From Escherichia phage vB_EcoM_JNE01, in sequence record OR670491: a stretch of DNA of 64,000 bases. The stretch is one strand, 5' to 3'. The translations under genes were made by a program, and so were the position numbers. Positions 7,129 to 36,224 of this stretch are shown here, piece by piece (position 1 is the first letter of the stretch; each line of letters starts with the position of its first letter). The notes beneath the pieces were generated by a model. The model saw only the letters and a list, made by a program, of their open reading frames with translations, was not told the DNA's origin and did not search any database.

Positions 7129-8082
7129 ATGAAATTATACCTAATTCCATGTTATGATATTGAAGATTACAATTACGCGGAAGATAGCGAAGGTGGTAAT
7201 CACGCTTCCGATATGAATGTATTCAGCGTAAGTACTCATAAGCATGAACGTTATACTAACTTTAGTACATTTCTTCAATATAATACTTTTGAAAATTTGA
7301 CATTTCGCCAGCGTTACAATGCTTACGAATACCAACTAATTGATATTTCAGATGATCTAACTTTTCAATTCATGCTATTAGGTCTAAAGGATTTCGATTT
7401 CATTGCGTATAATCATAAAACTAAGAAGATCTATGTAGGTAATAATTCATATCGTATTGCAGGATTAGCATCTGATCCTAGTGAAGAAGAACCAGATCAA
7501 GCTAATGCTTCAAGTTCGACTTCATTAGCGGGTCGTCGTCGTGCACAATCAAAACATAATTCTTCGTATGGTGGTCGTAGTAATAGACCATCACAGCGTA
7601 TGTTTACGTTCAATTCACCACAAGAAGAACCAGTACCATACGATGAAGAAGATCAAGAAGAAGTTCAGATTCGTATTGACAGTACTAATGGATACGATGA
7701 AATTAAAAAAGAATTAATGGTTTACATGGAAGATATCTACTACAAGATGTTCACTAAAACTGCCATCCATTTACGTAGTTCAGGTAGACATATCATCGGT
7801 GAACAGTCTAATAGTCTGTTTAGTGATGATGGATATTCGTCTGTGTATGACCCAAATGCAGTGCGTAACGCAAATCCAGTAGGTTACAAACGTACTAATT
7901 CCTCTTATGATGAAGCACTACAATTGACCACTGAAGAGTTTGGTTTTTTGTTTGAATCATACTTGAACGATGATGAATTGTGGATTAATACACAAAAGAA
8001 AATCCATCATAGACACAAAGAATGCATTCGTGCTTATACTTGTGATGCATGGAAAAAGTTCACAGAATGTGAGACAAAATAA
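7129..8082 (+). CDS. hypothetical protein (317 aa), acidic/Ser-rich central region
   Basis: Long ORF. Confidence 0.55.
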   Translation: MKLYLIPCYDIEDYNYAEDSEGGNHASDMNVFSVSTHKHERYTNFSTFLQYNTFENLTFRQRYNAYEYQLIDISDDLTFQFMLLGLKDFDFIAYNHKTKKIYVGNNSYRIAGLASDPSEEEPDQANASSSTSLAGRRRAQSKHNSSYGGRSNRPSQRMFTFNSPQEEPVPYDEEDQEEVQIRIDSTNGYDEIKKELMVYMEDIYYKMFTKTAIHLRSSGRHIIGEQSNSLFSDDGYSSVYDPNAVRNANPVGYKRTNSSYDEALQLTTEEFGFLFESYLNDDELWINTQKKIHHRHKECIRAYTCDAWKKFTECETK

Positions 8083-8102
8083 AAATTAGTGATATAATTT
8101 AA

Positions 8103-8134
8103 GGTGATAGCAGAGTTGTTATCACCTTTTTTTT
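8103..8134 (+). terminator. rho-independent terminator
   Basis: GGTGATA...TATCACC stem followed by 8 T. Confidence 0.7.
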
Positions 8135-8757
8135 AATCCTGAAAGGTTCCATAAGGAAATGATTAAGACCTAATCCACTCGAAAAGTAGAGGGTAGTTGA
8201 GTAGTCCTTTCAGTACGAACAGCAGAAGAAACCCGTTAGATGTTGGCATAGTTTGAACCACTCACGGCAATGCGGCTGTATAAAGAACTCCGATAAGCAC
8301 ACAGAGAGTTCCTAGATAGACATATAAGGATCGCACCTTACGAGATTTGCTAAGGGAGATTTCACTTTGAAACGCGGTCGTAATTTATACAATATAGTTG
8401 CGTCCAAAATTTGTGAAATCAAATACAAGTACTGTTCATATGGTATTTGTATTATGTGTCGGGATGTTTAAGACCGACGACCGTTGCTACAAGAACCGCA
8501 ATAGAGAGAAACAGAGCAACCCGCTTTCGCCCCAGTACTGGGAATTTGTGATATGAATATGTGAAGACCATCAGCGTCAAACTTTTTGTTCTTTCCCCTG
8601 CGGGGGGATGAAATATGTTCAAACAAATCCCGTCAATATTAATTAAACTACTAATAAAGCTGAATTAGACATGCGAAGCGTGTATAATTCTACCGATTTT
8701 TATTGAGTGCTAACGAAATAAAAGTCGTGTACATTCATTGATGTTTCCATAGGAATA
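8135..8757. other. ORF-free, GC-elevated region; candidate structured ncRNA or origin/regulatory region
   Basis: No ORF >=60 aa on either strand across ~620 bp in an otherwise gap-free genome; several local hairpins incl. palindrome CCCAGTACTGGG (8531-8542). Confidence 0.35.
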
Positions 8758-9300
8758 ATGATGTCTTCAAGAAAATCAAGTGTAAGTATTGTGTATAAGT
8801 CAAGTAATTTTTTGGATTGTAATGAACCTCAAGACTTTGAGAGTTTTAGTGGTTTTCAAATTATCAGAGAACGAGGTAAGCTCTCTTATATCAGAGAACT
8901 ACAAGACGGAATTGAGATTACATCTATTAAATTCAGACCTACACAAATACCCACAATCCTCAAAGCACAATATGGTAATTACTTCGAAGAGAGATACAAC
9001 GGGAACACTATTAGTTCTAAGTGTCACTTAATCAACGGAGATTTAGAAGGAGAGTACAGAAAGTATAGCCCCGATGGAACGTGCATTGGCGTTAAATATT
9101 TCTGTTCAGGAGTCGATGTAACCCAGGAGATCATTGACTTTTTGAAATTAAATTGCACAGTACTGACAATACATGAGTATAAGTTCACGGAAGAAGAAGA
9201 GTTTGTACTTATGGTCAGATACGGTTCACATTTTAAGTTTTACTATGAATATAACATTGACAGTAGTACTTTTGATAATATAGTACTTAACTGTCTATAA
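8758..9300 (+). CDS. hypothetical protein (180 aa)
   Basis: Long ORF after non-coding region. Confidence 0.55.
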   Translation: MMSSRKSSVSIVYKSSNFLDCNEPQDFESFSGFQIIRERGKLSYIRELQDGIEITSIKFRPTQIPTILKAQYGNYFEERYNGNTISSKCHLINGDLEGEYRKYSPDGTCIGVKYFCSGVDVTQEIIDFLKLNCTVLTIHEYKFTEEEEFVLMVRYGSHFKFYYEYNIDSSTFDNIVLNCL

Positions 9301-9316
9301 TCAAAGGATTGATAAA

Positions 9317-9844
9317 ATGAGTGAAAAGGATTCTACTCAAACAAATAAACATTCAGTACACTTCAGTACTGGAAAGGATAACTGGACTACACCGAAGGAA
9401 TTATTTGAAGATTTGGATGAAATCTGGGGATTTACATTAGATGCTGCTTGTGTTAAAGAAACAGCACTATGTGAGAAGTACTTCACACCAGAAGATGATG
9501 CACTTTCACAGGATTGGGGTAAGAATATTTGCTGGCTCAACCCACCCTATAGTGATTTGAAAACTTGGTTATCTAAGGCGGTGGATGCATACAATAATGG
9601 TGCAACAGTAATGATACTAGTACCTTCAAGAACTGATACTATTGCATTTCAACAGTACGCAGCTAAGGTATGTGATTGTGTATGTTTCATTAAAGGTAGA
9701 TTGCGTTTTGGTATTCCTGAAGAACCTGAAAAGAAAACTGATTCAGCCCCCTTCCCTAGTTGCTTGATAGTACTGGATAAGTACTTGACTCCCGCTAAAC
9801 TAAATTATCTTAAATCTCTTGGATTGGTGATGAAGAACGTATGA
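9317..9844 (+). CDS. dam: DNA N6-adenine methyltransferase (phage Dam-like)
   Basis: Motifs FTLDAAC...WLNPPYS (NPPY catalytic motif) typical of phage Dam-family MTases. Confidence 0.7.
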   Translation: MSEKDSTQTNKHSVHFSTGKDNWTTPKELFEDLDEIWGFTLDAACVKETALCEKYFTPEDDALSQDWGKNICWLNPPYSDLKTWLSKAVDAYNNGATVMILVPSRTDTIAFQQYAAKVCDCVCFIKGRLRFGIPEEPEKKTDSAPFPSCLIVLDKYLTPAKLNYLKSLGLVMKNV

Positions 9845-10380
9845 AAGAAGCTTGTGTAGTAACATTCGGGAGAGTTAACCCGATACATAAAGGACATGGA
9901 TTAGTGTTTGAAAAGGCACAATCCCTACAAGAACAGTACGATGCGGACTTAAAGATCTTCCTAAGTACCAGTACTGATAATGTTAAAAACCCCTTACCAC
10001 CTGAATTGAAAATGTATTACACAGAGGGATTCTATCCTAATGTGCAAGAAAACATTTGCATTGAGGACAATTTATTTGATATAATGAGAGAGTTAGATGG
10101 GAAGTACATGGATGTGTTGTTCATCTGTGGCTCTGACAGGATTAACTCTTTCCAAAAAACTCTTGACAGCTACAATGGTAAGCTGTATAATTTCTGTAAT
10201 ATTAAGGCAATCCAAGCAGGTATTGACCGTAATGTTAGTAAGTACAGTTCAACACAAATGCGTTCCTTTGCTAAGAATGATGACTTCGAAAGCTTCAGTT
10301 CATTTTTACCAGGGAATGATATCGACTTAAAACAAAAACTCTTTGAAGATGTAGTAAAATACATGAGGAAAGAATTATGA
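9841..10380 (+). CDS. nucleotidyltransferase, NMN/NaMN adenylyltransferase-like
   Basis: GRVNPIHKGH (HxGH-type) and C-terminal SSTQMR (SxTxxR-like) motifs. Confidence 0.5.
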   Translation: MKEACVVTFGRVNPIHKGHGLVFEKAQSLQEQYDADLKIFLSTSTDNVKNPLPPELKMYYTEGFYPNVQENICIEDNLFDIMRELDGKYMDVLFICGSDRINSFQKTLDSYNGKLYNFCNIKAIQAGIDRNVSKYSSTQMRSFAKNDDFESFSSFLPGNDIDLKQKLFEDVVKYMRKEL

Positions 10381-10667
10381 CAGTACTGTTCAAAACAAGC
10401 CCATTACTATGGGAACAAAATGAAGCAGCAGGATATCGTAAAGTTCATGTAGAGTACGAGGGTAACACTATCCTTGCTTTCGTTGCGAATCGTACTTTCG
10501 GTAAATGGACTTCACTGCTTATCCCAATGGGGTACACTTACAATCGTTCTGAAGTAACTGCTATCTCTAAGCTGTACAATAATGCTCCGGTAATTATGGA
10601 TCTACTTAGTAAAGACGATTTGACACATGAAGATGTGATTAAATTTCTGGCAACCCTGAATGCATGA
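10377..10667 (+). CDS. hypothetical protein (96 aa)
   Basis: ORF, ATGA overlap with upstream gene. Confidence 0.5.
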   Translation: MTVLFKTSPLLWEQNEAAGYRKVHVEYEGNTILAFVANRTFGKWTSLLIPMGYTYNRSEVTAISKLYNNAPVIMDLLSKDDLTHEDVIKFLATLNA

Positions 10668-10689
10668 GATTGAACTAACAGGATACTTT

Positions 10690-10938
10690 ATGCAAGAATC
10701 CATGATAGAAACTTTCCACAATTTCGAGGCACTTGAGAGTACTCAAATGTGGCAGGTAAAATCAATTTTTGGCGTTTTCAGTACAGAACACCAAGAACTA
10801 TTGAATAAGTTATCGAGTACTGGTATACTGTGTACAATAAAGATTGGTGTTCATGTCCACAAAGGGTATGTCATTTATTTTGACAAATCCAGATATTTTT
10901 ATATTGTAAAGGAGCAATACATTGACAAATACAAATAG
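10690..10938 (+). CDS. hypothetical protein (~82 aa)
   Basis: ORF; internal ATG 10690 chosen (track start 10660). Confidence 0.45.
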   Translation: MQESMIETFHNFEALESTQMWQVKSIFGVFSTEHQELLNKLSSTGILCTIKIGVHVHKGYVIYFDKSRYFYIVKEQYIDKYK

Positions 10939-11539
10939 TAATACTTATTTCCGCTACCTACGTCTCGGCCTGTCTCTACGTCCAATTCGTGGTAAATGTG
11001 ATTCTTTAGCGGACTTAGATTACGCTTATGCATTGCATTGTGATGGTGTACAATATGTCCTGGGTGACTTCGGTACGTTTGAAGAAACCAATGACAGTAC
11101 TGAACTAAAGACTGGTATTGATAATCTCAATCTCATTACCAACAGTTCACGTCATGATATTGTTCTTGAAATTCAAAACTTCATTGAACAAAATACTGGT
11201 AAGCGTACTTGGTCATATGTCGGTACTGATACCCAACTCTCTGTAGCGTTCGGTAATGACGAGGGTTATGTAGCCCAACTTATTATGGACTTTGAGAACG
11301 AAGAGAAGTTCCTTGAGTTCAAGGATAAGATTATGCAATCCTTGATTCATATGGGTATTCAAGAAGAGAATATGCCAGAGATTAAAGATATTGAAGAGTT
11401 TGTTTTAATCCCATCTGATGAGAAGTATGATGCGATGTTTACCAATCTCAAAGTTCCAGGAGTTATCGTGGAGTTCTTTGATGATGGTGATGACAGCATT
11501 TACATCGACCTAGATGACGATGGTGACGATGACGAATAA
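10922..11539 (+). CDS. hypothetical protein (205 aa), acidic C-terminus
   Basis: Long ORF ending DLDDDGDDDE; terminator downstream. Confidence 0.55.
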   Translation: MTNTNSNTYFRYLRLGLSLRPIRGKCDSLADLDYAYALHCDGVQYVLGDFGTFEETNDSTELKTGIDNLNLITNSSRHDIVLEIQNFIEQNTGKRTWSYVGTDTQLSVAFGNDEGYVAQLIMDFENEEKFLEFKDKIMQSLIHMGIQEENMPEIKDIEEFVLIPSDEKYDAMFTNLKVPGVIVEFFDDGDDSIYIDLDDDGDDDE

Positions 11540-11547
11540 TTTTTATT

Positions 11548-11572
11548 GCCCGATGTATGTCGGGCTTTTTTG
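11548..11572 (+). terminator. rho-independent terminator
   Basis: GCCCGA...TCGGGC stem then TTTTTT. Confidence 0.65.
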
Positions 11573-15643: not shown

Positions 15644-15906
15644 TGGACATACAATCTCAATTACAATTGTTAACAGTACTTGAAGATGCGGCGTTTCAGG
15701 TTGTATCAGATATAAACAAATTACTCCCACCTGGAACTAAAGTACGTGTTAGAGAGAAGAGTTATAATACTTTCGAAATAGTTGAACAGGAATTAACTGT
15801 AAAAAAAGTAACTTATTATGACTCAACATTATGTATTCAGTGCGAAGATAAAGACGAGATGTTATTGTATTATAATCAACACACAGATATAGAGGTAATA
15901 TCATGA
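15643..15906 (+). CDS. hypothetical protein, dispersed small paralog family B
   Basis: ~85 aa; shares [LV]xD...G[KT]KVR core with 19148, 19398, 22117, 23118; start 15631 or 15643. Confidence 0.45.
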   Translation: MDIQSQLQLLTVLEDAAFQVVSDINKLLPPGTKVRVREKSYNTFEIVEQELTVKKVTYYDSTLCIQCEDKDEMLLYYNQHTDIEVIS

Positions 15907-17045
15907 CACATTTACAAATATACGAAGACCTAATGCACTTGTGCAAAACAAATGAAGCATTTTTTTATGTTGATCATAAAAGTCCGGCTGGTGGTACATA
16001 CCGTGTATTCACCTATCGTCTGGCTTCTTACACAGATTTCAGTCTTCCTAATGCACTGGAAACACGTGGTTCTATGTGGGAGATTGATGAAGATGGTGAA
16101 ATGATTCGTTGTGCTTCGCGTGCAATGAAAAAGTTCTTCAATGCTTACGAGAACCCATTTACAATGTTCAGTCCAGATACAACATGCGATGATATTGCTA
16201 TCGTGATGCCTAAACTGGATGGTTCAATCATCAGTACATTTCGTGATAATGATGGTGAAATCCGTTGTAAATCACATACTTCCTTGTCATCTGACCACGC
16301 AATTAACAGTACTCGACTATTGAACGAGAACCGTAATTTGTATGATTATGTAGACGAAGCTGAACGTTTAGGTTATACTGTGAATCTGGAGTATACAAGT
16401 CCAGAGTACCGAATAGTATTACCATATCAAGTAGAACAGTTATTTGTACTTAATGTTCGTCATCGATTGAGTGGTGAGTTGTTATGCGGTGCTGCATTAC
16501 GTTCGAAGTTCCCTTGTTTAGCACAATACAGTACTAACATGACAGGTAATAACATCTGTTCATCGTTTCCGGTGCGTTCTACCTTCAAAGAAAGTGTAGA
16601 TGAAGTACGTAAAATGGTTGACATTGAAGGATTTGTGTGTATCCTAAATAATGGTACAATGTGCAAATTGAAAACTGATTGGTATTGTTCATTGCATCTT
16701 ACAAAAGACAGTATTCTTATACCGTCACATTTGTACGAAACTGTACTCAATGATGCCAGTGATGACCTGAAACAATTGTTCAGTACTGATGAATATGCAA
16801 TGCAGTTGATATTAAAAATGGAACAGCGTGTCTTTTCATGCTATAATGCTTTACAAGATGAAGTAGAGAGCTTCGTCCAACAATACAAGCACTTGGAGCG
16901 AAAGGAATTCGCAATGAAGGTTCAGGAATGTCTTAAGAATGAACTGAACCGTCAGGGCTTGGCCTTTGCGTTGTACAACGGTAAAGTGGTGAATTATAAA
17001 GAAACTTTATTGAAGTACTACAAAGATGTACTAAAGGATTTTTAG
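15903..17045 (+). CDS. rnlA: RNA ligase 1 (T4 Rnl1-like)
   Basis: N-terminal FFY...SPAGGTYRVFTYRLASYTDF...ALETRG and ligase motif I KLDGS align with T4 Rnl1 as recalled. Confidence 0.85.
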   Translation: MTHLQIYEDLMHLCKTNEAFFYVDHKSPAGGTYRVFTYRLASYTDFSLPNALETRGSMWEIDEDGEMIRCASRAMKKFFNAYENPFTMFSPDTTCDDIAIVMPKLDGSIISTFRDNDGEIRCKSHTSLSSDHAINSTRLLNENRNLYDYVDEAERLGYTVNLEYTSPEYRIVLPYQVEQLFVLNVRHRLSGELLCGAALRSKFPCLAQYSTNMTGNNICSSFPVRSTFKESVDEVRKMVDIEGFVCILNNGTMCKLKTDWYCSLHLTKDSILIPSHLYETVLNDASDDLKQLFSTDEYAMQLILKMEQRVFSCYNALQDEVESFVQQYKHLERKEFAMKVQECLKNELNRQGLAFALYNGKVVNYKETLLKYYKDVLKDF

Positions 17046-18140: not shown

Positions 18141-19085
18141 ATGCCGACTATTACATTAACAGTTGGTTTGCCAGGATGTGGTAAAACTACATGGGCTGTT
18201 GAAGCAATTCGAAAAGCAAAGTCAAAGACTGTCAATATCAACCGTGATGACATTCGTGAGTCAATGGCTGGTTCACATGATGCATACAAATTCAACGACG
18301 CTAATGAGCAGTACGTAACTACATTACAGTTCAGTGCAGCCGATTTAGCAGCTAAGAATTCGTGGAACATCATCGTTTCTGACACGAACCTTAAACAAGG
18401 TTTTCGTGATAAATGGAAAATGTGGGCTTCAGACAATGGGTACGACTACAAAGAAAAAGACTTCTATCAGGATTTTGAACCTAAAGAAGACCGTGGTGCT
18501 GATGTACATGAATTCTTTAAGATTAAAGAATATGTAAAACTTTGTAAGACTCGTAACCTAAAACGCGAACGTTCAGTACAGGACAGTATCATTGATACTA
18601 TGGCACATACGTACTATTACAGTAAAATGCGTATGTTCAATGCGTATGAGCTTCAGAATTATGACTCATTACCGCATTGTATTATTGTTGATATCGATGG
18701 TACACTAGCTCATAAAGGGGGTCGTAATCCATTCGATGAAAGTACTGTCCTACAGGATACTCCAGACGAGGAAGTAATTCTTTCAGTAATTGCAGAAGCA
18801 CAGTTCTTTAAACGCAAGATTATCGTTATGTCCGGCAGGACTGAAGGGTGCAGAGAAGATACTGAGAAGTGGTTACTGACTTGGGGTGTGCCTTATGATG
18901 AACTATATATGCGAGCAATTGATGATAAACGTCCTGATGATGTAGTTAAGTACGAGTTACTATCTAAACACGTTGCTGGGAAGTACACGGTCAAGAAGGT
19001 TTATGATGACCGTGAGGCAGTAACATTTATGTGGCGTAACCTAGTAGGATTGAAAGTATTCCAAGTCGAACCTGGATTATTTTGA
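18141..19085 (+). CDS. pseT: polynucleotide 5'-kinase/3'-phosphatase (T4 Pnk-like)
   Basis: Walker A GLPGCGKTT, NINRDD, HAD motif IVDIDGTLA; overall pattern like T4 PseT. Confidence 0.85.
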   Translation: MPTITLTVGLPGCGKTTWAVEAIRKAKSKTVNINRDDIRESMAGSHDAYKFNDANEQYVTTLQFSAADLAAKNSWNIIVSDTNLKQGFRDKWKMWASDNGYDYKEKDFYQDFEPKEDRGADVHEFFKIKEYVKLCKTRNLKRERSVQDSIIDTMAHTYYYSKMRMFNAYELQNYDSLPHCIIVDIDGTLAHKGGRNPFDESTVLQDTPDEEVILSVIAEAQFFKRKIIVMSGRTEGCREDTEKWLLTWGVPYDELYMRAIDDKRPDDVVKYELLSKHVAGKYTVKKVYDDREAVTFMWRNLVGLKVFQVEPGLF

Positions 19086-25265: not shown

Positions 25266-26684
25266 ATGAGCATTCTATCTATTATCGAAAACATTAAAAG
25301 TGTTAGCAGTACCCTTGGCAAGAAAGCTATCCTGGAAGAGAACAAAGATAATGAAACTCTCAAGAAAGTACTGAAATATACACTAGACCCTAGTATTGTA
25401 AGTGGCTATAAGAAGCTACCAGAAGCCCATGACGCATCTCAACATATGTCATTGGATGAAGCTATAGATAAGCTGGAATGCATCTATAAGCGTGATGTGA
25501 CGGGCCATGCAGGGCGTGATTTCATTGCTTCAGTACTGGGTAGTGTAAGTCCAGATGATGCTGAAGTTATTCGTAAGATGCTTACCAAGAACCTAGATTG
25601 TGGTATTCAAGAGAAGAACTGTAACGATGTATTCGGTAAAGGTTTCATCAAAGATGAACCATATATGCGTTGTTCTTTGCTTGATAAAAAGACTGTTAAG
25701 AACATCAACTTCAAAGGTCATGGTTATGCTGTCTCCGAGGTCAAAATGGATGGCACTTACCTGAACCACGTAGTTATCAATGGTTCTCTTACTTCTTCCT
25801 CCCGTAATGGTAAACTATATGACTTCTTAGGTTGTCGTGATGGTGAGATGGCAGGTCTTGCACATCAAATCCAAATGAATGATGATCGTTTTAGTAGTGG
25901 CGTAGTCTTTATGGGCGAAGGTCTAGTACTTGATAATGACGGTGAAACTATTCTCCCACGCACAACTGGTAATGGTATCATCCAGAAAGCTGGGAAAGAC
26001 AGTATCAACCAAAATGAAGCAATGCGTACTGTATTTGTCCTGTGGGATGTTGTTCCTTATGATGCATTCTGCGACGGTACATGGAACGTAAAACGTAAAG
26101 AACGTCGTGAACTGCTTGAAAATGCAATCAATGCATTGGGTAGTGAATTTGTCCGTATGGTGAAATACCGTAAGGTTAAAAACATCAAAGAAGCATTTGA
26201 GTACAATAACGAACTCATGGAACAGGGTGAAGAAGGTTCAGTACTGAAATGTGAAGATGGTGTCTGGAAATCACATACGTCTCCTAAGCAGTTGAAAGTA
26301 AAACTAAAAATGCAATTGGATTTGCGTATTGTTGGCTTCAACGAAGGTGAAGGTAAACGTAAAGGTTCACTTGGTTCTTTACAACTCGAAAGTGCATGTG
26401 GTACACTAAAAGTAAATGTAGGAACAGGTATCAAAGAGAAAGATGCAGAGTGGACATTCAAAACCATTTGGGAACGAATGCAAGAACTAATTGGTAAAGT
26501 CGTTACCGTTGAGTGTAATGAAATAGTTATTGACAGTAAAACTGGTGAACCATCACTATTTTTACCAGTGTTTATTGAATTTAGATTTGACAAAAACACG
26601 TGTGACGATTATACTCGTATCTTAGAAATTCGTGATAGTGCTGTTGAGGTGTTCTCTAACAGTATCATTGAATCAATAGCTTAA
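25266..26684 (+). CDS. ATP-dependent DNA ligase (T4 gp30-like)
   Basis: N-terminus ...KKAILEENKDNETLKKV... resembles T4 ligase; motif I KMDGTY. Confidence 0.8.
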   Translation: MSILSIIENIKSVSSTLGKKAILEENKDNETLKKVLKYTLDPSIVSGYKKLPEAHDASQHMSLDEAIDKLECIYKRDVTGHAGRDFIASVLGSVSPDDAEVIRKMLTKNLDCGIQEKNCNDVFGKGFIKDEPYMRCSLLDKKTVKNINFKGHGYAVSEVKMDGTYLNHVVINGSLTSSSRNGKLYDFLGCRDGEMAGLAHQIQMNDDRFSSGVVFMGEGLVLDNDGETILPRTTGNGIIQKAGKDSINQNEAMRTVFVLWDVVPYDAFCDGTWNVKRKERRELLENAINALGSEFVRMVKYRKVKNIKEAFEYNNELMEQGEEGSVLKCEDGVWKSHTSPKQLKVKLKMQLDLRIVGFNEGEGKRKGSLGSLQLESACGTLKVNVGTGIKEKDAEWTFKTIWERMQELIGKVVTVECNEIVIDSKTGEPSLFLPVFIEFRFDKNTCDDYTRILEIRDSAVEVFSNSIIESIA

Positions 26685-34711: not shown

Positions 34712-34906
34712 ATGATGACATGGGATATTCTTGACATTGTTTTGCAGTTCTTGATGATTTTGATTGCAGTTGTTTGGTACAATCACATTGTTCTGTTATA
34801 TAATGAAGTTCGTAGTACTAAAGCAGATAAACATTTGACGTACCACATTTCAATCATCGTAAGTGCTTCAATTGTTCTTCTAACGAACTATTTGTTTGCA
34901 CGTTGA
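34712..34906 (+). CDS. small membrane protein (64 aa)
   Basis: Two hydrophobic segments. Confidence 0.45.
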   Translation: MMTWDILDIVLQFLMILIAVVWYNHIVLLYNEVRSTKADKHLTYHISIIVSASIVLLTNYLFAR

Positions 34907-34917
34907 AAGGTCAACAT

Positions 34918-35670
34918 ATGTCTACACAATCCTTTTTAGAAAAAGCAGGGGAAAAACGTTTACTGATAATCAGCGGGGCTGGGTTATCGGTTGAAAGTGG
35001 GATGGAGCCATTTCGTTTTGATGATGGCTTATGGGATAACTTTCAAATCAATGACGTGTGTAATATTGCACGTCTTAGTTCCAAATATCATATAGTACAT
35101 GCATTCTATAATACTCTAAGAGTAAAATTAGGTTCGTGTGAACCAAATGCAATGCACTATTACATCAAATCATTAGAGGATCAGTACAAAGATAATTTCT
35201 TACACATGACCTCCAATATGGATGATTTGTACACTCGAATCGGTGGAACCGAGTTGAAGCTTCATGGTAATCTACGAGAAGTTATTAAAAACTACTCAAT
35301 CAATAGTGATGACTATGAAGTAATTGACTGTGGTTATGAACCGTTCATTCCAGAGACTGATGTGTTCTCTAAACCAAATGTTGTTATGATTGGTGAATAT
35401 CATCGTTATGTGGATGGGAACCGTCTTCCTATCTACGAAGAACGAAATGAAGTGTTGCGTAGTCTTACTGAAAATGATACAGTAATTGTTATTGGGAGCA
35501 GTGATACAGTACTGGTATGGTCCAGACTAGCTGGGGCGTTACCTTGTTATAGTGTTACTGTTAACGTCAGAAAGAATGACAATGACTTCCTATTCAATGA
35601 ACGTATCATTAAGCCAGCAACTAAAGCAATTCCAGTACTGGAGCCAATCATTAAGGAAAGAATGAAATGA
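34918..35670 (+). CDS. Sir2-family protein (NAD+-dependent deacylase/ADP-ribosyltransferase/NADase-like), no Zn-ribbon module
   Basis: GAGLSVESGMEPFRFDDGLW, TSNMDDLYTRIGG, KLHGNL, VIVIGSSDTVL match sirtuin motifs; ATG 34918 after GAAAGG. Confidence 0.65.
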   Translation: MSTQSFLEKAGEKRLLIISGAGLSVESGMEPFRFDDGLWDNFQINDVCNIARLSSKYHIVHAFYNTLRVKLGSCEPNAMHYYIKSLEDQYKDNFLHMTSNMDDLYTRIGGTELKLHGNLREVIKNYSINSDDYEVIDCGYEPFIPETDVFSKPNVVMIGEYHRYVDGNRLPIYEERNEVLRSLTENDTVIVIGSSDTVLVWSRLAGALPCYSVTVNVRKNDNDFLFNERIIKPATKAIPVLEPIIKERMK

Positions 35671-36224
35671 GTTTGAGAGAAGTACCACTCGGAGAATTTG
35701 GCAAACAAGCAAACTTTGTATTCTGTTACTTCTTTGCACGAAATTGTAATCCATATGAGAATTACGAGTTGAATGATATTCCAGTAGTTAATCTGGTACT
35801 CCTTCAACTCCGTTGGGATGGGTTGATGGGTGGATGTGGAGGAACAGTTGAAGATTCTGATACTTCACTTGAAGCTGCGTTGAAGCGTGAAATCCAAGAA
35901 GAAATGGATTATAATATTTCCATTGAACAGTTGAAACCTCTAAAGACGTTTGAATTGTTCCCTGGTGCTAACACTCATAGCTTCAGTTATGAAGTCACAT
36001 ATGATGAGTTGAAAGCGATTCGTGACGGGTACAGTACTGCTAAACATGCCAGTGCTGAAGTAGCGGGTGTAAATTTATGTCACATTTCTCGATATTCTAA
36101 GGGAAAAAATCGAGAAGCAGGATATAATAATCTCATGACACAAAACTTCATTGGAACAGCTAAGGAAGAATTGCAGTACTTAGTTGAAAATGAAAACTTA
36201 CTTATCAGTTACTTACAAGGGTAG
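35667..36224 (+). CDS. Nudix-like hydrolase (putative, divergent Nudix box)
   Basis: GGCGGTVEDSDTSLEAALKREIQEEMDY resembles GX5EX7REUXEEXGU with altered spacing. Confidence 0.4.
   Translation: MSLREVPLGEFGKQANFVFCYFFARNCNPYENYELNDIPVVNLVLLQLRWDGLMGGCGGTVEDSDTSLEAALKREIQEEMDYNISIEQLKPLKTFELFPGANTHSFSYEVTYDELKAIRDGYSTAKHASAEVAGVNLCHISRYSKGKNREAGYNNLMTQNFIGTAKEELQYLVENENLLISYLQG

Follow-up and report, generated by a model that had tools for sequence, protein, structure and literature searches.

The stretch of DNA analysed here, called the window below, comprises 64,000 nt of Escherichia phage vB_EcoM_JNE01 (OR670491), a jumbo coliphage of the 121Q/PBECO4-like type. It carries two overlapping genes, one coding for a Dam-like DNA methyltransferase (MTase) and the other for a small nucleotidyltransferase (NTase). 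The original prediction for this pair had proposed translational coupling, an N6-adenine MTase of open specificity, and phage-directed NAD+ synthesis by the NTase as an answer to NAD+-depleting defence. Our analysis supported the assignment of the MTase, placed the NTase in a large phage family of HIGH-superfamily enzymes, and led us to doubt, with moderate confidence, that the NTase serves NAD+ reconstitution. The two genes are probably not parts of one pathway.

The gene pair and its transcription unit

Both open reading frames (ORFs) were found as described, with NPPY in the MTase and HKGH and SSTQMR in the NTase. They are real genes rather than chance ORFs, because they match Pfam and PHROG families and have orthologues in 34 jumbo-phage records. 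The TGA stop codon of the MTase (9842-9844) and the ATG start codon of the NTase (9841-9843) overlap as ATGA. Translational coupling is plausible, but the arrangement is generic for this genome rather than distinctive: a 4-nt overlap occurs at 13 of the 102 plus-strand gene junctions in the window, and an overlap of any length at 34. The junction also varies among related phages: the two genes overlap by 4 nt in K64-1 and by 8 nt in Munch, and they are separated by 8 nt in fHe-Yen9-04 and by 21 nt in CBB.

The pair belongs to a six-gene unit (8758-11539) that is bracketed by terminator-like hairpins and codes, in order, for the 180-aa, Dam, NTase, 96-aa, 92-aa and 205-aa products (Table 1). 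The upstream hairpin with its T-run is found at the same position in CBB, Munch and fHe-Yen9-04. No Pfam match was obtained for the 180-aa and 205-aa products. Over window 8700-10700, Escherichia phage Turkey5 (351 kb; PQ471516) is 98.3% identical, while 121Q, PBECO4, G17, phAPEC6 and Sharanji show ~78% identity. The block of 180-aa ORF, Dam, NTase and small ORF was found in Turkey5, K64-1, Munch, CBB and fHe-Yen9-04, Rak2-like jumbo phages of five genus-level groups, at protein identities of 33-96%. In Munch, fHe-Yen9-04, CBB and K64-1, the 180-aa gene has a same-sized counterpart in the same place and a small gene also stands in the place of the 96-aa ORF, making the latter a conserved partner of the block.

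The Rak2-like jumbo genomes are broadly collinear, and outside this clade Dam was beside a member of the NTase family in 0 of 80 IMG/VR loci. Because of this collinearity, the variable junction and the lack of local co-occurrence outside the clade, we treat the two genes as co-transcribed neighbours with no demonstrated system between them, and we infer that they act independently.

Table 1. Features of the unit and its surroundings (window positions, unless Turkey5 is named)
Feature	Position	Strand	Remarks
Terminator-like hairpin and T-run	8101..8128	+	12-pair stem, then TTTTTTTT; closes upstream gene 7129-8082; 5ʹ boundary of the unit
Structured RNA	8130-8660	+	roughly 500 nt
180-aa protein	8758..9300	+	phrog_16210 (E=7.5e-70); first gene of the unit, directly 5ʹ of the MTase
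Dam-family MTase, 175 aa	9317..9844	+	ATG start; PF05869, phrog_111
HIGH-motif NTase, 179 aa	9841..10380	+	ATG start; phrog_3041
96-aa protein	10377..10667	+	phrog_14956 (E=1.8e-33); start overlaps NTase stop (ATGA, 10377-10380)
Two small genes (92 aa, 205 aa)	10660-10938, 10922-11539	+	3ʹ end of the transcription unit
Terminator-like hairpin GCCCGA...TCGGGC and TTTTTT	11548..11565	+	closes the six-gene unit
T4-type RNA ligase 1 (Rnl1)	15903-17045		
Polynucleotide kinase-phosphatase (Pnkp)	18141-19085		AAA_33 and HAD_PNKP
ATP-dependent DNA ligase	25266-26684		PF01068
Sir2-family protein	34903-35670		followed by an ATGA-type overlap
Nudt16-like Nudix protein	35667-36224		decapping-type
RNA paralogues in Turkey5 (PQ471516)	108767-109375, 192062-192576, 304938-305448		

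A Dam-family methyltransferase

The MTase matched the Pfam Dam family PF05869 with E=4.7e-34 and 117.9 bits, passing the gathering threshold (cut-off 28.1), and its residues 18-161 were aligned with positions 7-152 of the 169 in the model. The match to phrog_111 was also strong (E=1.7e-57), and the equivalog cut-off of TIGR01712 was narrowly missed (94.5 versus 97.05 bits). The catalytic-type motif NPPY occupies residues 75-78 (nt 9539-9550) within WLNPPYS (residues 73-79), and FTLDAAC, a motif resembling an S-adenosylmethionine (AdoMet) site, is encoded at nt 9431-9451. These matches identify the protein as an orphan member of the phage Dam family, in agreement with the predicted Dam-like N6-adenine MTase. 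GenBank relatives already carry the label 'DNA methyltransferase', and the Turkey5 orthologue is annotated merely as hypothetical.

Relatives of the MTase were found in 1,913 phage records, mostly genomes of 22-91 kb. The closest ones outside the jumbo clade came from a staphylococcal phage (44% identity) and a lactococcal 936-group phage (40%). The Dam enzymes of T1, HP1 and Shiga toxin (Stx) phages are characterised GATC-specific members of the PF05869/TIGR01712 family, and the MTase of the window shares ~34% identity with the Stx-phage relatives and ~30-34% with the T1-like ones. A search of the Protein Data Bank (PDB) with the MTase gave no homologue with a solved structure. Since its relatives are distant and a solved homologue is lacking, the specificity is not inferable from homology, in line with the original prediction. 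The DNA of the related phage RaK2 was reported to be methylated, with no detail of the motif given (PMC3622015).

Excess of AGTACT and depletion of GATC

The excess of AGTACT in the window, on which the idea of this word as a target had been based, was reproduced, with 187 copies observed versus 21 expected. In Turkey5, 989 copies were observed versus 118 expected. When the copies in Turkey5 genes were divided by reading frame, 399, 283 and 168 were counted, where codon usage predicts 81, 41 and 21; the word was also in excess, and denser, in intergenic DNA. An excess that affects every reading frame as well as the DNA between genes is a signal at the level of DNA. The flanking bases lengthen the motif to CAGTACTG. 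An 8-12-fold excess was found in Turkey5, CBB, Munch, fHe-Yen9-04 and K64-1, all of which carry the Dam-NTase block; the comparison between word and block thus samples five lineages. A literature search for AGTACT in jumbo phages returned nothing.

GATC occurred at 0.44 of expectation in the window and at ~0.5 in Turkey5 and in a sample of Munch. It was near expectation in fHe-Yen9-04 and at ~0.7 in CBB.

AGTACT, or its GTAC core, is a candidate target of the MTase, compatible with what is a correlation within a single clade. None of the possible targets reaches even chances in our judgement: a site of some other kind seems the likeliest, GATC comes next as a serious possibility, and a site of the GTAC or (C)AGTACT(G) type is possible at a lower probability. 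The MTase would be a cheap and concrete case for testing whether (C)AGTACT(G), in excess across the clade, serves as a methylation motif.

Other palindromes are missing from these genomes. GCGC was absent from 350 kb of Turkey5 (383 expected), from the window and from 45 kb of CBB, and CGTACG and GGTACC were also absent from the window and Turkey5 1-350000. In the window, 26 of the 64 six-base palindromes had zero copies, each of them with at least two G/C pairs.

A HIGH-superfamily nucleotidyltransferase about equally distant from named enzymes

In the NTase, HKGH occupies residues 16-19 (nt 9886-9897) within GRVNPIHKGH (nt 9868-9897), followed by KNPLP (nt 9985-9999), GSDR (nt 10129-10140) and SSTQMR (residues 136-141, nt 10246-10263). 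HKGH and SSTQMR agree with the (H/T)xGH and ISxTxxR motif types, which are common to the whole HIGH superfamily and do not discriminate within it. The protein matched phrog_3041 'cytidyltransferase' with E=3.7e-55, and its match to Pfam CTP_transf_like was under the gathering score (18.6 versus 21 bits). The best NCBIfam match was NadD (TIGR00482), at 19.7 bits versus a cut-off of 112.45. Neither the other models of nicotinamide mononucleotide (NMN) adenylyltransferase (NMNAT), namely PRK01153, TIGR01527 and TIGR01526, nor the model of phosphopantetheine adenylyltransferase (PPAT), TIGR01510, matched the NTase. The description 'NMNAT-like' is therefore fair at the level of the superfamily but fails as a family assignment, since every curated NMNAT threshold was missed.

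Comparison of the single sequence with PDB chains gave chance matches only. An AlphaFold2 model (pLDDT, the predicted local distance difference test, 76) showed a Rossmann-like fold of the HIGH superfamily, and the NTase is, as modelled, a HIGH-superfamily nucleotidyltransferase with the generic fold. Foldseek searches with the model ranked PPAT above NadD and FAD synthetase, with template modelling (TM) scores of 0.43-0.65 and 12-19% identity; PPAT, at 0.53-0.65 and 13-19% identity, was no better than NadD. When a profile of 43 diverse stand-alone family members was scored against PDB sequences, PPAT was matched with 5.9e-5 and gave the only full-length alignments among the top matches. The NadM/NadR-type NMNAT 9x6f was matched with 1.2e-4 over the N-terminal third only, NadD with 1.4e-4, and MJ0951 with 4.2e-5, mainly over the C-terminal motif. 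The scores for PPAT and the NMNATs are effectively a tie, and the NTase is about equally distant from both. About 12 of the 43 members also gave weak NCBIfam matches to FAD synthetase.

Four names are in use for the NTase orthologues in GenBank: 'hypothetical protein', 'phosphopantetheine adenylyltransferase', 'cytitidyltransferase' and 'ribonucleotide reductase A'. No evidence underlies any of them. 'Cytitidyltransferase' is a propagated misspelling, and the 'PPAT' label in Turkey5 is automatic. The labels 'PPAT', 'cytidyltransferase' and 'ribonucleotide reductase A' are equally tentative.

The T4-GC190 family and its partner genes

Judged by its profile matches, the NTase is a stand-alone member of the phage 'cytidylyltransferase' family T4-GC190 (phrog_3041 / phrog_395). 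A word-based homologue search recovered only close orthologues, whereas an exhaustive HMMER search gave 3,365 family representatives (50% identity clusters) at E<=1e-3. Among the best 150 representatives, 92 were longer than 400 aa, usually with the NTase domain at or near the N-terminus. The family was found in 563 phage records, 460 of them under the names Synechococcus, Cyanophage or Prochlorococcus phages. By tblastn, the NTase was 27-38% identical to cyanophage relatives over 83-98% of the length. In fHe-Yen9-04, the orthologue bears the label 'Cyanophage-encoded cytidylyltransferase #T4 GC0190'; the corresponding gene of P-SSM4 is T4-GC 190. The 43-member alignment showed the family motifs FGRxNPP(T/H)xGH, SxSxDxxKNPL, GSDR, KYNGxxYNF, SAGxR and SxS/TxxR. 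The function of T4-GC190 was called unclear in the literature (PMC9146016; PMC6918029), and one cyanophage member was detected in purified virions (PMC9146016).

The neighbourhood of the family was analysed in the 80 IMG/VR loci. DUF6267 was present in 46 of them (upstream in 45, within 60 nt in 12), and a Zeta/AAA_33 kinase in 20. The pairing of DUF6267 with the NTase arose repeatedly among unrelated lineages. Marine 42-kb contigs had the order DUF6267, NTase, M15 peptidase and Zeta/AAA_33 kinase, while a second lineage had DUF6267 followed by an NTase-DUF6321 fusion. In freshwater T4-like contigs, the DUF6267-NTase pair followed DNA polymerase, UvsX, gp41 and MazG. In P-SSM4, gene 154 (T4-GC 71), which lies directly 5ʹ of the NTase gene, was also identified as DUF6267 (HMM 9e-30). 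Some proteins, 600-1,200 aa long, combine the NTase, DUF6267 and kinase domains in one chain, and another fusion partner of the NTase was a 5ʹ(3ʹ)-deoxyribonucleotidase domain. DUF6267 was found neither by tblastn nor by HMM in Turkey5; an upstream DUF6267 gene is a trait of the surroundings and no criterion for belonging to the family.

DUF6267 corresponds to Pfam PF19782, comprises 8,000 or more clusters (90% identity), and has invariant KxDG, EGxV and KxVDR motifs. A search of the literature on DUF6267, DUF6321 and DUF5824 found nothing.

Partners of known NAD+ pathways

Known phage NAD+ pathways need partner genes (10.1101/2024.02.11.579819; PMC13464706). Of the NAD+ reconstitution pathways (NARPs), NARP1 consists of Adps and Namat, NARP2 of Nampt and an NMNAT, and the recently described NARP3 of PnuC and a NadR-like enzyme (10.1101/2024.02.11.579819; PMC13464706). 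A partner gene of this kind normally lies adjacent. The search for a Nampt/NadV partner that had been suggested as a check was negative, both in the annotation and by tblastn, in the 98%-identical Turkey5 and in the window. Queries with CBB Nampt, NatV, the NadR-like CBB_361, PnuC and an AAA_28 kinase against Turkey5 1-350,000 and the window found no homologue; at E<=1, they returned only chance segments of 18-98 residues, and Sir2 as a positive control was recovered at 8e-65. Products named Nampt, NatV, NadR-like or PnuC are not listed in the Turkey5 annotation. For NARP1, this annotation holds no Prs- or Nampt-like product, and the NARP1 genes were not searched by query. Nampt or NatV was near the NTase family in 0 of the 80 IMG/VR loci, and cyanophages do not appear among the ten commonest organism names of Nampt-bearing phage records.

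Some relatives carry both kinds of gene. CBB has three modules: NatV with Nampt (CBB_113/115), the NadR-like enzyme with PnuC (CBB_361/362), and the Dam-NTase pair (CBB_72/73). Since CBB already has two dedicated NMNATs, its retention of this third, divergent enzyme speaks for another role of the NTase. Nampt and the NTase are also both present in Munch, fHe-Yen9-04, pEa_SNUABM_12, Kaldavass and K64-1, ~23-27 kb apart.

The window also encodes a Sir2-family protein and, directly after it, a Nudt16-like Nudix protein (Table 1). The region of CBB syntenic to this Sir2-Nudix pair additionally contains NatV and Nampt, which are lacking in the phage lineage of the window.

Possible functions of the nucleotidyltransferase and the gene pair

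Enzymes of the HIGH superfamily transfer a nucleoside monophosphate (NMP) to the phosphate group of an acceptor and release pyrophosphate. In the explanation that we prefer, the six-gene unit, with its gene order conserved across the Rak2-like jumbo phages, would express the MTase and the NTase together. The MTase would methylate adenines of the phage DNA at N6, with AdoMet as the methyl donor, and thereby blunt restriction. The NTase would have a separate function, moving an NMP, most likely AMP from ATP, to a phosphorylated acceptor, and this function would be shared across the family, elsewhere with DUF6267 and a Zeta/AAA_33 P-loop kinase as partners. We lean towards an ATP-dependent enzyme whose acceptor is other than NMN for salvage, and which would not be the NMNAT of an NAD+ reconstitution pathway.

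The alternative closest to the original prediction is that the NTase is a true NMN or nicotinic acid mononucleotide (NaMN) adenylyltransferase that uses NMN from the host to maintain or rebuild NAD+ in the infected cell, for instance when a defence system depletes it. Several observations speak for it and against the preferred explanation. HxGH and SxTxxR are present, and the weak NCBIfam matches of the 43 family members were mostly to NMNAT models (NadD 32, PRK01153 NMNAT 22, NadR-NMNAT 18, CoaD 12). By hhalign, the family was aligned with CBB NatV with 83% probability over 56 columns that cover motifs 1-2, and GRxNPxHxGH, KNPL and SSTQMR resemble GRFQxxHxGH, KNPF and STEMR of NatV; the profile match to 9x6f points in the same direction. 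Some source pipelines name homologues NMN or NaMN adenylyltransferase, the P-loop kinase that follows the NTase domain in some relatives is loosely NadR-like, and the window encodes the NAD-linked Sir2 and Nudt16-like Nudix proteins. A lone NMNAT could also use host-made NMN. Two further points weigh on the preferred explanation only: the comparison of DUF6267 with known folds yielded no match and so no positive functional clue, and synteny by itself leaves room for the MTase and the NTase to be linked in function. On the other side, Nampt of NARP2 and PnuC with the NadR kinase of NARP3 are absent from Turkey5 and the window, neither Nampt nor NatV was nearby in any of the viral loci, and CBB keeps the NTase beside two partnered NMNATs. 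The carriers are mostly cyanophages, a group outside the top names of Nampt-bearing records, and the curated NMNAT cut-offs were far off, with PPAT an equally good match. We therefore regard NAD+ synthesis by the NTase as unlikely, and the proposed countering of NAD+-depleting defence was not supported by the genomic context.

The partner genes suggest another chemistry, in which the family would adenylylate 5ʹ-phosphate ends of nucleic acids or nucleotides (A(5ʹ)pp(5ʹ)N-type) in a repair or processing module with a polynucleotide kinase (PNK)-like kinase and a ligase-like DUF6267. The NTase of the window would act alongside Rnl1, Pnkp and the ATP-dependent DNA ligase encoded 5-16 kb downstream. 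The adjacency or fusion of DUF6267, NTase and Zeta/AAA_33 kinase is consistent with this, as are the match of the kinase domain of one fused family protein to phrog_505 'polynucleotide kinase', the fusion with a 5ʹ(3ʹ)-deoxyribonucleotidase domain, the placement of the NTase among gp41, MazG, UvsX and DNA polymerase in T4-like phages, and the resemblance of the DUF6267 motifs to ligase motifs I, IV and V. However, the ligase idea comes from short motifs only, a DUF6267 profile found nothing among PDB sequences, Turkey5 has no DUF6267, and we know of no HIGH-family enzyme that acts on polynucleotide ends; we consider this chemistry quite unlikely. A bolder version, in which the NTase is the minimal form of a family performing an undescribed nucleotide or nucleic-acid modification with DUF6267 and the kinase, and stands beside a Dam enzyme targeting CAGTACTG so that the operon writes a dense self-mark, seems very doubtful to us. 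The MTase and the NTase might also form one DNA-modification system marking the (C)AGTACT(G) palindrome for self-recognition or protection. Their adjacency is kept together with the flanking ORFs across the five genus-level groups, AGTACT is in excess in all of these, RaK2 DNA was reported to be methylated, and the ~2-fold depletion of GATC in the E. coli/Salmonella phages would not be expected in genomes whose own enzyme methylated all GATC sites. However, co-distribution within one clade amounts to one evolutionary event, and general collinearity makes adjacency weak evidence. Moreover, Dam was not beside the NTase in the loci outside the clade, the Dam family occurs in far more records than the NTase family, and a target for protection from restriction does not predict over-representation. 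A single system of this kind is thus highly improbable. Least probable of all is the activation of sugar phosphates or polyol phosphates in envelope or glycan chemistry, as done by TagD or HldE (CDP-glycerol, ADP-heptose or similar). It is suggested by the weak Pfam CTP_transf_like matches, by some marine loci near GT2 glycosyltransferases, a second CTP_transf_like gene, the M15 peptidase and a Zeta-toxin-like kinase, and by TagD being the nearest annotated function in the cyanophage literature (PMC9146016). Against it, the TagD structure 1coz was matched merely with E=0.29 in the HxGH region, TagD and HldE were not among the 25 NCBIfam families matched by most members, this phage has no glycosyltransferase near the NTase, and the 'cytidylyltransferase' label is merely an inherited one.

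GenBank records of relatives already name both genes, and at face value the finding is ordinary. As a correction, the NTase should not be counted as an NAD+-reconstitution (anti-defence) gene. The large family with its conserved partner DUF6267 makes a well-defined biochemical target.

A structured RNA upstream and RNA-repair genes downstream

The structured RNA lies within the 675-nt gap 5ʹ of the operon. The nucleotide identity of this gap is 65-76% across jumbo-phage genera, compared with 33-50% amino-acid identity for the flanking proteins. Each genome carries 4-5 copies of the RNA; in total, 270 places in 61 jumbo-phage records were found. Covariation was strong: RNAalifold analysis of 12 orthologous and paralogous copies gave 77 predicted pairs, 41 of which had compensatory double changes. 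In the alignment, 96.4% of the cells were paired, versus 35-48% when the partners were slid, and 137 cells had double changes, versus 13-24 when slid; the observed values were reached in 0 of 500 shuffles. The folding z-score of the gap as a single sequence was only -1.57, and the structure is visible through covariation alone. The RNA was assigned to the plus strand because G-U pairs are frequent. No Rfam 15 family matched it, and a known riboswitch or leader was rejected for this reason. A diverged orthologue is present in the same gap of K64-1, and diverged copies were also found in enterobacterial prophages, with the integrase on one side and a CI-like repressor on the other. This RNA may be a more valuable lead than the gene pair.

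Downstream of the operon, the window encodes a set of T4-type RNA ligase 1, polynucleotide kinase-phosphatase and DNA ligase (Table 1). Such tRNA/RNA-repair sets were proposed to counter PrrC-type anticodon nucleases (PMC7247149). The DNA ligase of the phage is ATP-dependent, and an NAD-dependent ligase as a motive for encoding an NMNAT was thereby ruled out.

Comparison with known systems

The MTase resembles the phage Dam family in covering nearly the full Pfam model, in its NPPY motif, in its small single domain, and in being an orphan with no restriction gene adjacent. It differs from the Dam enzymes of Stx and T1 phages by low identity, by missing TIGR01712, and by its genome, which shows 2-fold GATC depletion and 8-fold AGTACT excess.

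Compared with NatV, the NMNAT-Nudix protein of NARP2, and with Bas30_86, the NadR-like enzyme of NARP3, the NTase belongs to the same HIGH superfamily and has the same catalytic motif types. The profile similarity to these NMNATs is weak and limited to the first 56-65 residues, and BLASTP with the NTase gave E=0.034 over 48 residues for CBB NatV and E=0.002 over 34 residues for the NadR-like enzyme. Unlike NatV and the NadR-like enzyme, the NTase has neither a Nudix nor a kinase domain. With PPAT (CoaD), it shares the best Foldseek matches (target-normalised TM up to 0.65), a similar size and a K-x-P motif after strand 2. However, the identity to PPAT is 13-19%, TIGR01510 was matched by 12 of the 43 family members and always far below the threshold, and a CoA-pathway context is missing around the NTase.

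The cyanophage members, such as PSSM4_155 of P-SSM4 and S-SZBM1_140, share with the NTase the family profile and the motifs GRxNPP(T/H)xGH, KNPL, GSDR, KYNGxxYNF and SxS/TxxR. The NTase of the window is a bare catalytic domain of 179 aa, whereas the cyanophage versions add a C-terminal extension of ~200 aa; the cyanophage gene directly follows a DUF6267 gene, and that of the window follows Dam.

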